Of a stretch of DNA of 64,000 bases, positions 38,392 through 40,220 are shown piece by piece. Source of the stretch: Anaerolineales bacterium (lineage in GTDB: Bacteria; Chloroflexota; Anaerolineae; Anaerolineales; UBA11579). The DNA lies in assembly GCA_035458505.1 (NCBI GenBank), contig DATHZS010000050.1, positions 6,173-70,172 on the forward strand, in the 5' to 3' direction. Positions within the stretch are counted from its first letter, which is position 1, and each line of letters begins with the position of its first letter. The position numbers and the translations under genes are program-made. A model generated the notes under the pieces. The model was not told the DNA's origin. It did no database searches and saw only the letters and a list, made by a program, of their open reading frames with translations.

Positions 38392-38420
38392 TTGACAGTC
38401 CCGCTCAAGCTCGATATAAT
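38392..38420 (+). promoter_or_regulatory. Perfect consensus sigma-70 promoter of rplU-rpmA-rpmE
   Basis: TTGACA (38392-38397), 17-nt spacer, TATAAT (38415-38420). Confidence 0.6.
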
Positions 38421-38533: not shown

Positions 38534-38563
38534 TGAACGGTGAAGTGAAGATTGGAGGAAAAA

Positions 38564-39121
38564 ATGAAGTATGCGATTGTCGAAAGTGGCGGCAAGCAGT
38601 ATAAAGCCGTCGAAGGAGCTACGATTGATGTGGATCTCCTGCCCCTGGAAGTGGGTAAAACACTGGACCTGAGCGATGTGCTCCTGATCTCTGATGAAGA
38701 TACCATCCTCATCGGGACGCCGACCGTAGAAGGTGCCAAGATCTCTGCAACGGTCGTGGCACAGATCAAAGCCCCGAAGGTCATCGTTTTCAAGTATAAG
38801 TCCCGTCAGCGCTACCGTGTCAAACAGGGTCATCGTCAGAAGTACACCCGTCTGGCCGTAGACGAGATCGCCTATAAAGGCAGCAAGAAGGCAGCGGCGC
38901 CCGCCAAGGCTGAAGACTCACCTGAAGCCAAAGCTGAGCCGAAACCAAAAGCTGCTCCCAAAACAAAGACAAAGACCAAAACAAAGACAAAGACCAAAAC
39001 AAAGACGAAGACCAAAACAAAGACTCAGGCGAAAACGAAAACAGCCAGTAAAACTGCAGCCAAAACCAAAACAAGCACCAAAAAAGCTGCACCCAAAAAG
39101 TCAACCAAAAAGTCGGATTAG
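38564..39121 (+). CDS. rplU: 50S ribosomal protein L21 with ~80-aa Lys/Thr/Ala-rich C-terminal tail
   Basis: MKYAIVESGGKQYKAVEG...VVAQIKAPKVIVFKYKSRQRYRVKQGHRQKYTRL is canonical L21. The tail is ...PKTKTKTKTKTKTKTKTKTKTQAKTKTASKTAAKTKTSTKKAAPKKSTKKSD. The start is ATG 38564, 5 nt after GGAGG. Confidence 0.9.
   Translation: MKYAIVESGGKQYKAVEGATIDVDLLPLEVGKTLDLSDVLLISDEDTILIGTPTVEGAKISATVVAQIKAPKVIVFKYKSRQRYRVKQGHRQKYTRLAVDEIAYKGSKKAAAPAKAEDSPEAKAEPKPKAAPKTKTKTKTKTKTKTKTKTKTKTQAKTKTASKTAAKTKTSTKKAAPKKSTKKSD
38960..39027 (+). repeat. 18-bp tandem repeat (about 3.8 copies) inside the rplU tail
   Basis: AAAACAAAGACAAAGACC occurs twice exactly (38960-38977, 38978-38995). A third copy has 1 substitution (38996-39013), followed by a partial copy. 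Confidence 0.9.
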
Positions 39122-39153
39122 TCCACGGCTTTTATCAGGAATGAGAGGTAGTC

Positions 39154-39423
39154 ATGGCTCATAAAAAAGGTGGCGGTTCATCCCGCAACGGTAGAGATAG
39201 CAAATCAAAACGCCTAGGCGTAAAAAGATACGCCGGTGAATTTGTACTGTCCGGCAACATTCTGGTCCGCCAGCGCGGCACTAAAATTTATCCGGGAACC
39301 AACGTTGGTATGGGTCGAGATCATACATTGTTTGCGACCACCAATGGTGTGGTAGTTTACGAAGATATCCGGGGCGGCAAAAAGAGCGTTCGGGTGGAGC
39401 CAGTGGCTTCATCCGGCGACTGA
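39154..39423 (+). CDS. rpmA: 50S ribosomal protein L27
   Basis: [48 protein letters not shown] is canonical L27. There is no N-terminal propeptide. Confidence 0.95.
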
Positions 39424-39458
39424 TGCCGGTCTGGTGCATAGATAAGAGGTAATTGAAG

Positions 39459-39923
39459 ATGAAGAAAGATATTCATCCGACTTATTTTCCTGAGGCGCGC
39501 GTGATTTGTGCCTGTGGTGAAACCTGGACAGTTGGATCCACCCAGGAAGAAATTCGCGTCGATATTTGTTCAGCCTGTCACCCATTTTTTACCGGTGAGC
39601 AGCGCATTGTGGACACTGAAGGTCAGGTTGACCGCTTCTACAAGCGGTTGGAAGCTCGCCAGCGTTATGTCAGCGAGCAGGAAGAGCGCGAAGCATCCAA
39701 GACATCCCCCGACCGGGCGTTGAAAGAATTTGAGGTCAGCGCACGGGCAACCAAAATGTTGGTGGATGCAGGTATCCAAACCGCAGGCGACCTGATTGCC
39801 AAACTGCAAGAAGGCGGCGATGAGGCTGTTTTAGCGATTGATGGTTTTGGACGCAAATCCCTGGCCGATTTCAAAAAATCCATGCGCCGCATGGGGTACG
39901 AACTTCCTGAAGATCAGGAATAA
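39459..39923 (+). CDS. rpmE: 50S ribosomal protein L31 fused to a C-terminal helix-hairpin-helix domain resembling the RNAP alpha C-terminal domain
   Basis: [63 protein letters not shown] is L31. An 86-aa extension follows, containing [62 protein letters not shown]. Confidence 0.85.
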
Positions 39924-39947: not shown

Positions 39948-39974
39948 AAACGCCCGCTTGCCGGGCGTTTTTTG
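39948..39974 (+). terminator. Rho-independent terminator of the rplU-rpmA-rpmE operon
   Basis: Stem AAACGCCCG / CGGGCGTTT, 5-nt loop, then a T-run. Confidence 0.75.
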
Positions 39975-40220
39975 GTTCCTGAAGAAAATGACGAAGGCGG
40001 CTGGATGGGTTCGACAGGAACTTTTCCCATCAGCAGGCCGATTGTGGATGCAATCAGACTGCGTTGCTTGTCATCCCCATCAACATCAAGTAAACTTTGG
40101 TATATGCCCCACTGAAAACAGGGCAGCTTGAGTTTCCATGCCGGTGGCCCTGGTAACTGTCCATTGCGTAGTGGTTCTCAGATTCCTTTTATTATTCCAG
40201 CAATCAAGAGAGAGGTATGC

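Follow-up and report, generated by a model that had tools for sequence, protein, structure and literature searches.

Why would a ribosomal protein at a subunit bridge carry a domain otherwise known only from RNA polymerase? The question is raised by rpmE, a gene in the 64,000-nucleotide stretch of Anaerolineales DNA analyzed here (the window), whose product joins ribosomal protein bL31 to a module resembling the C-terminal domain of the RNA polymerase alpha subunit (alpha-CTD). The alpha-CTD binds DNA, transcription activators and NusA. To our knowledge, the bridges between transcription and translation known so far are all separate factors, namely NusG, NusA and RfaH, and the mechanisms of coupling outside of E. 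coli and Bacillus constitute an open question on which such a fusion bears. No description of an L31-alpha-CTD fusion was found in a full-text literature search, and databases label the fusion proteins simply as '50S ribosomal protein L31'. An earlier, sequence-only reading of the window had pointed out the fusion and proposed that the added module could tether the ribosome to nucleic acid or to RNAP-associated factors.

Architecture of the rpmE product

The 154-residue protein is encoded by one continuous plus-strand open reading frame (39453/39459..39923 in the window). Its start codon is likely the ATG at 39459, preceded by a Shine-Dalgarno-like AAGAGG 10 nt to its 5' side (39443..39448, plus strand). 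From that ATG, rpmE spans 39459..39923 including its TAA stop codon (39921-39923), an assignment that draws on the reading frame, Pfam and NCBIfam profiles and homologues. The gene is the last of an rplU-rpmA-rpmE unit on the plus strand. According to the list of reading frames, rplU (38552-39121) encodes a bL21 with a K/T/A-rich tail, and rpmA, encoding bL27, lies between it and rpmE (39154-39423). A consensus promoter can be read at 38392-38420, ahead of the unit (rplU and rpmA together span 38552..39423), and a hairpin followed by a T-run resembling an intrinsic terminator closes it (39955..39975, plus strand).

The first 64 residues (39459..39650, plus strand) form a Zn-type bL31 core of type A, confirming the ordinary, cysteine-containing L31 that had been recognized in the first ~70 residues. 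The Pfam family PF01197 (Ribosomal_L31) matches residues 1-64 over model positions 1-64 of 65 with 100.1 bits (cut-off 27), and both NCBIfam L31 equivalogs are passed (NF000612, 99.1 bits against 70; TIGR00105, 89.4 bits against 38.35). L31 chains in the PDB match the same residues with E ~1e-20 and 54-58% identity. C17, C19, C37 and C40 supply the four Zn ligands in a CxC ... CxxC arrangement and are each at least 90% conserved in alignment A2, while the L31 core of Ardenticatenaceae-type fusions is without these ligands. An 11-residue segment of the core, the counterpart of the part of E. coli bL31 that binds the 30S head, is likewise conserved. The Zn cysteines and the head-binding segment are thus common to the fusion and to type A bL31 such as E. 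coli RpmE and T. thermophilus L31, which are also single-copy and encoded in a ribosomal protein operon. The difference lies beyond the core: canonical bL31 stops at ~66-72 residues, whereas the fusion continues for ~85 more with a helical stalk and a folded domain. L31 of other Chloroflexota has basic/acidic C-terminal tails of 30-45 residues without the domain.

No second L31 gene stands beside the fusion. A profile scan of the whole metagenome-assembled genome (MAG) returned one PF01197 match above cut-off, and the same holds for G043, G258, G076 and G242, four genomes that are closed or nearly so, each with one match and no L31 gene besides the fusion. The protein must therefore serve as the ribosomal bL31; judged from these gene complements, the fusion gene is the cell's single bL31. 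Its place in the 70S ribosome would be bridge B1b, the position expected by homology to other bacteria.

The extension in the same reading frame had been described as 86 residues long, and residues 69-154 plus the stop codon indeed occupy 39663-39923. A charged linker (residues 65-85; 39651..39713, plus strand) is delimited by helix prediction, column conservation and pairwise identity. It is followed by the alpha-CTD-type domain with two helix-hairpin-helix motifs, (HhH)2 (residues 86-148; 39714..39902, plus strand), which is assigned by PF03118, AlphaFold2 (AF2), Foldseek and alignment with E. coli RpoA; the peptide earlier singled out as its core corresponds to residues 88-149. A short acidic tail (39903..39920, plus strand) is defined by column conservation in 40 sequences. 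In the full-length AF2 model (40-sequence alignment, pLDDT 80), beta-strands at residues 10-34 of the L31 part are followed by a long helix at 56-81 and a five-helix bundle at 88-144. The end of the core (residues 56-64) and the linker are predicted to form one continuous helix of ~39 Å, after which comes a conserved S-P-(D/E)-R-P motif. Averaged over sequence pairs, identity reaches 76% for the core, 46% for the linker and 55% for the domain, where L101, G129, G131, L135, K139 and G146 are invariant. At the DNA level the homologues at hand are ~60% identical, a divergence at which saturation of synonymous sites is expected.

The likeness of the extension to the RpoA C-terminal domain, first noticed as a residue pattern, is borne out by profiles and by predicted structure. 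PF03118 (RNA_pol_A_CTD; cut-off 23.8) scores 29.9 bits at residues 75-142 of the whole protein, 32.3 bits with the domain alone and 31.4 bits in the genome scan, and eight NCBIfam rpoA models align with residues ~58-152. A profile of the domain searched against PDB sequences gave 51 matches at E<=0.01, all of them RpoA with a best E of 4e-10, so the resemblance is well above chance; the AR1/AR2 chains of E. coli NusA were not among the matches at this threshold. A model of the domain alone (AF2, 17 sequences, pLDDT 84, pTM 0.70) is predicted to adopt the compact five-helix (HhH)2 fold of the RpoA alpha-CTD (PF03118; PDB 1LB2, 3K4G, 9ZUM, 7VPD). Its top 50 Foldseek matches in the PDB are all RpoA alpha-CTDs, and the isolated-CTD chains superpose with target-normalized TM scores of 0.7-0.89 and rmsd of 1.0-2.1 Å over 59-70 columns (for instance 7vpd_S, 9dvt_A, 3n4m, 1lb2, 3k4g and 9zum).

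Alignment with residues 245-329 of E. coli RpoA (L136) indicates which functional surfaces persist. In the DNA-binding '265 determinant' (R265, N268, G296, K298 and S299), the counterparts of four residues are kept among 40 aligned sequences: R96 for R265 (R in 37/40), G131 for G296 (40/40), K133 for K298 (38/40) and S134 for S299 (34/40). N268 is not conserved, as its counterpart, K99, stands in a variable position occupied by D, K or E. In some sublineages the K298/S299 equivalents are replaced as well (GFGQAAL, GFTQSAL, GIGQTAL). Assigning names from the alpha-CTD literature, we take the site of a 4-5 residue insertion (QEGGD) to be that of the E. coli '287 determinant'; a 3-5 residue insertion before helix 4 is common to the L31 module and the RpoA CTDs of Anaerolineae. 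Compared with the RpoA alpha-CTD, the module has extra conserved basic residues (K139, K140 and R143) and a terminal G-Y-E-L-P-E motif made of G146-Y147-E148 and the acidic tail (G146 in 40/40, Y147 in 35/40 and P150 in 38/40), and the net charge of the domain is ~+1. It has bL31 as its partner, with no RpoA N-terminal domain attached, and a genuine rpoA lies elsewhere in the genome (contig C24; 334 residues, CTD 67.8 bits). On these sequence grounds the module is a paralogous alpha-CTD-type domain and not an RNAP subunit.

Such a fold could also act away from the ribosome. Free bL31 carrying the module might take part in autogenous control of its operon, or serve as a decoy or competitor for alpha-CTD-binding factors, for example to signal the level of free ribosomal protein. 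In E. coli, bL31 represses the translation of its own gene, rpmE (PMC7297116), and activators converge on the alpha-CTD fold, the Foldseek matches including PDB complexes with CAP, Spx, RpaA, GlnR and AfsR. This explanation is nonetheless quite improbable: as the fusion is the sole bL31, most copies should sit in ribosomes, and the CAP-contacting surface of the 287 determinant carries the class-specific insertion.

Distribution and origin of the module

A protein search with the fusion returned 7,994 matches. Among the 120 listed, lengths range from 139 to 162 residues, most are flagged with PF01197 plus PF03118, and the sources are named as Anaerolineales, Anaerolineae or Chloroflexota. Across 400 sampled genomes of the phylum, full-length matches occur in 35/35 from the same order, a count that includes this MAG, and no full-length fusion was found in other classes. 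Long forms of L31 reach beyond the order within its own class: in a 150-genome sample of Anaerolineae, ~8 further families have the fusion (f5, f9, f94, f97, f104, f124, f125 and one f119 genome). Loci with GTDB names belong to Anaerolineales, Anaerolineaceae and Ardenticatenaceae. The fusion is thus conserved through an abundant and mostly uncultured bacterial order. No ribosomal alpha-CTD module of any kind is present in many Anaerolineae families, nor in any other Chloroflexota class that was sampled, so the module must be dispensable for the basic process.

This distribution disposes of the suspicion that a stop codon was lost in one particular assembly: order-wide conservation rules out both a lost stop and an assembly artefact. 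The broader idea of an artefact, by a lost stop or a chimeric contig, or of a decaying and non-functional appendage could appeal to the source of the window, a MAG that is 74% complete, yet it has practically nothing left to stand on, given the same architecture, 148-162 residues long, in independent assemblies that include closed genomes, and a domain that keeps 55% identity and invariant glycines and admits indels only in frame.

Several candidates for a pre-fusion form, which came from long read-through matches, were rejected. Instead of a split gene pair, G162 has purK-like DNA downstream. The extension in G434 is helical and without the domain, that in G409 is a short tail only, and a Nitrospirae locus (L077) encodes a plain L31 of 67 residues. 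A separate locus, L143 (G512:C9, minus strand, 1275-1793), encodes an L31 fusion whose linker is longer and strongly acidic (VEEQVEEQVEERVEQKVEE) and whose module retains the equivalent of N268 (RIYNSL). From its sequence, L143 may represent an independent, more RpoA-like acquisition.

Where did the module come from? PF03118 has three matches in the genome, namely rpoA (334 residues, 67.8 bits), rpmE and NusA (638 residues, at 435-494). The L31 module is 33% identical to the CTD of its own RpoA (E 3e-9) and 36% identical over 61 residues to the C-terminal domain of its own NusA (E 8e-10), so that the two are about equal in pairwise similarity. The short insertion offers a better clue. It is present in the RpoA CTDs of 6/6 Anaerolineae sampled, with or without an L31 fusion, where it consists of 3 residues of LEKGED type at the site of the E. 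coli 287 determinant (L001:760-1764, L106-L120), and it is not found in ten RpoA CTDs from other Chloroflexota classes. Confinement of the insertion to Anaerolineae implies that the module was recruited inside this class. Neither RpoA nor NusA could be named as the donor: pairwise scores are equal, and a 68-column tree separates the ribosomal modules only from the RpoA CTDs. In that tree all RpoA CTDs form one supported clade (96/86) with the ribosomal modules outside, and the L21 copies described below fall in an unresolved cluster with L31 copies of Anaerolineales.

NusA of this genome (L003:202-2118, contig C9) has one alpha-CTD-like (HhH)2 domain, followed by ~140 residues of low-complexity tail that is acidic and then basic; a related domain occurs in NusA-sized frames of most of 41 genomes of the order. 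NusA of Anaerolineales, with its single (HhH)2 domain and long acidic tail, differs from E. coli NusA, which has AR1/AR2. Besides its 36% identity, the Anaerolineales domain shares the same insertion with the L31 module, and the pairing of AR2 with the alpha-CTD in E. coli is a precedent for the partner proposed below.

Related modules on bL21 and bS16 and a possible docking role

The alpha-CTD-type module is not confined to bL31. An exhaustive phmmer search with residues 72-154 gave 288 representative clusters, in which Pfam confirmed bL21 with an alpha-CTD (P0194, P0219, P0230 and P0164) and bS16 with an alpha-CTD (P0268; L139:2769-3302). The bL21 fusions form a rare family of ~10 clusters and 201-223 residues. 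One 323-kb contig from a close relative (L137; ena:ERZ27256783:k141_1518644) has the same rplU-rpmA-rpmE-tdk-hpt order as the window and carries the module on both bL21 (L137:6001-6606) and bL31 (L137:6972-7436). The bL21 copy, attached by a K/A/P-rich linker of ~35 residues, is 61% identical over 64 residues to the bL31 copy of the same contig (E 2e-24), far closer than to any RpoA, and from the sequences the module was probably copied from rpmE to rplU in this lineage. Unlike the bL21 of L137, that of the window (38552-39121) has only its K/T/A-rich tail.

Fusions to bS16 are more numerous, with at least 55 clusters carrying the domain among the 120 S16 homologues listed; the named sources among these matches are Chloroflexi or Anaerolineae, and one fusion lies in an ffh-rpsP context. 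In the 150-genome class sample, full-length bS16 fusions were found in G403, G404, G424 and G443 (families f86, f87 and f107), and none in genomes that carry the L31 fusion. The L31 of G404, G424 and G443 is plain, and G403 has no L31 match at threshold. Resting on four bS16-fusion genomes, the pattern is suggestive of bS16 and bL31 as complementary, interchangeable carriers. Fusions to all three proteins share the module, the insertion, the G-x-G-x-K hairpin and the C-terminal attachment to a ribosomal protein; they differ in carrier, in ribosomal site and in linker, which is flexible and K/A/P-rich in place of the helix of bL31. That the module has also spread to bL21 and bS16 seems not to have been reported before. 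As for the bS16 of the window's own genome (G000:C100:27964-28260), it stands in a 205-residue open frame, about twice the usual length, in which PF03118 has no match.

Both bL21 and bS16 lie far from bL31, on the solvent sides of the 50S subunit and of the 30S body. This geometry weighs upon a structural account of the fusion, in which the module is a lineage-specific extension unconnected to transcription. It would pack on 16S rRNA, on proteins of the head, or on mRNA or tRNA close to it, and would stabilize or tune both bridge B1b and the swivelling of the head. Extensions of ribosomal proteins usually bind rRNA, and L31 of other Chloroflexota is tailed too, as noted above; HhH hairpins bind the nucleic-acid backbone regardless of sequence, the G-x-G-x-K hairpin and R96 are conserved, and R63 of E. 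coli bL31 already touches 16S rRNA (PMC7297116). A single site-specific rRNA pocket, however, cannot serve all three carriers, and near-identical modules sit on bS16 and, by a long flexible linker, on bL21, far from the bL31 site; the domain is also nearly neutral in charge. We consider a purely structural role rather unlikely. Even then, the fusion would be a clear instance of bacterial ribosomal proteins gaining a folded domain that has moved from one of them to another. The same three carriers tell against the off-ribosome explanation, as modules on bS16 and bL21 would call for three separate regulatory circuits.

Occurrence at three distant sites, by way of a stiff helix or a floppy linker, argues against one fixed rRNA pocket and suggests instead a tethered head with a common ligand outside the ribosome. 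In E. coli, the N-terminal domain of bL31 binds uL5 on the central protuberance, and its C-terminal part binds the 30S head at uS13, uS14 and uS19, R63 contacting 16S rRNA (PMC7297116). By analogy, the Zn-ribbon part and the 11-residue segment of the fusion would sit where the 50S central protuberance faces the 30S head, at bridge B1b, and from the head-binding end a charged helix of ~26 residues would project the folded (HhH)2 domain. Given the conservation of the head-binding segment, out of which the predicted helix runs on, we infer from the model that the module is held at a distance of some tens of angstroms from the 30S head. There it could serve to dock a ligand that is not part of the ribosome core.

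The ligand that we favor is the transcription machinery, either the C-terminal domain of NusA (or its N-terminal domain) or the CTD of RpoA itself. The alpha-CTDs of E. coli bind both NusA AR2 and the NusA N-terminal domain (PMC5842316), and alpha-CTD-NusA contacts are also found inside the coupled complex TTC-B, where the 30S head is the docking site of RNAP and NusG (bioRxiv 10.1101/2020.03.01.972380). Because RpoA, NusA and bL31 of these bacteria all carry the class-specific domain, such a pairing seems preferable to the second choice, DNA, which would be bound through the retained surface of R265/G296/K298/S299 type. Either ligand would keep ribosomes near transcribing RNAP or near the nucleoid. 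We regard it as tentative, though quite conceivable, that bL31 bears a helix-borne docking head of alpha-CTD type for one of these ligands. Its extension, that Anaerolineae ribosomes have a built-in device for coupling or tethering, in which an alpha-CTD paralogue on bL31, or on bS16 or bL21, pairs with the NusA domain, RNAP alpha or DNA, is a more doubtful proposition. If true, a ribosomal protein itself would hold ribosome and RNAP together, as opposed to only NusG and NusA in E. coli.

The proposal of the sequence-only reading, tethering to nucleic acid or to RNAP-associated factors, gains indirect support here from the module on bL21 and bS16, the related domain of NusA and the retained equivalents of R265, G296, K298 and S299. 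Three features weaken it: the N268 equivalent is lost, the net charge is near neutral, and some sublineages conserve the K298/S299 counterparts less well. Together with the patchiness of the distribution, the first two of these also speak against a strong claim of binding to either transcription machinery or DNA. With the modules of bS16 and bL21, the fusion nevertheless makes a concrete candidate for a link, carried by the ribosome itself, to the nucleoid or the transcription machinery, and one that is open to test: the isolated domain of 70 residues should be easily expressed, and cultured Anaerolineales exist for cryo-EM of their ribosomes.

Other alpha-CTD-like proteins and bL21 fusions

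Among 15 genomes with extra PF03118 matches, the extras included no bL21 or bS16 fusion and consisted of NusA-sized frames, a second RpoA-like paralogue and a small coiled-coil protein. The second RpoA-like protein is seen in family f22 of another Chloroflexota class (L122, G231:C1:3333790-3333963 region; L121; L123), in frames of 359-373 residues that stand beside the regular rpoA. In another locus from outside of Anaerolineae, also Chloroflexota (L126, G071:C1:2579129-2579305), a stand-alone protein of ~148 residues combines a coiled-coil N-terminus with an alpha-CTD-like C-terminus.

The C-terminus of bL21 accepts other partners as well. It is fused to PF02817 (E3_binding, a peripheral-subunit-binding domain; P0346, P0351, P0345 and P0353), for example in Gemmatimonadota, and to HHH_5 plus PF14229 (P0315), and from these sequences it seems to be a hot spot for fusions to small domains. 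Larger Chloroflexota proteins (P0192, 872 residues; P0209, 1173 residues; P0271) begin with an alpha-CTD-like domain that is followed by GH18 and N_BRCA1_IG. Two others, P0131 (736 residues) and P0170 (592 residues), consist of 6-7 tandem alpha-CTD-like repeats, with PF03118 scores of 260 and 164 bits.
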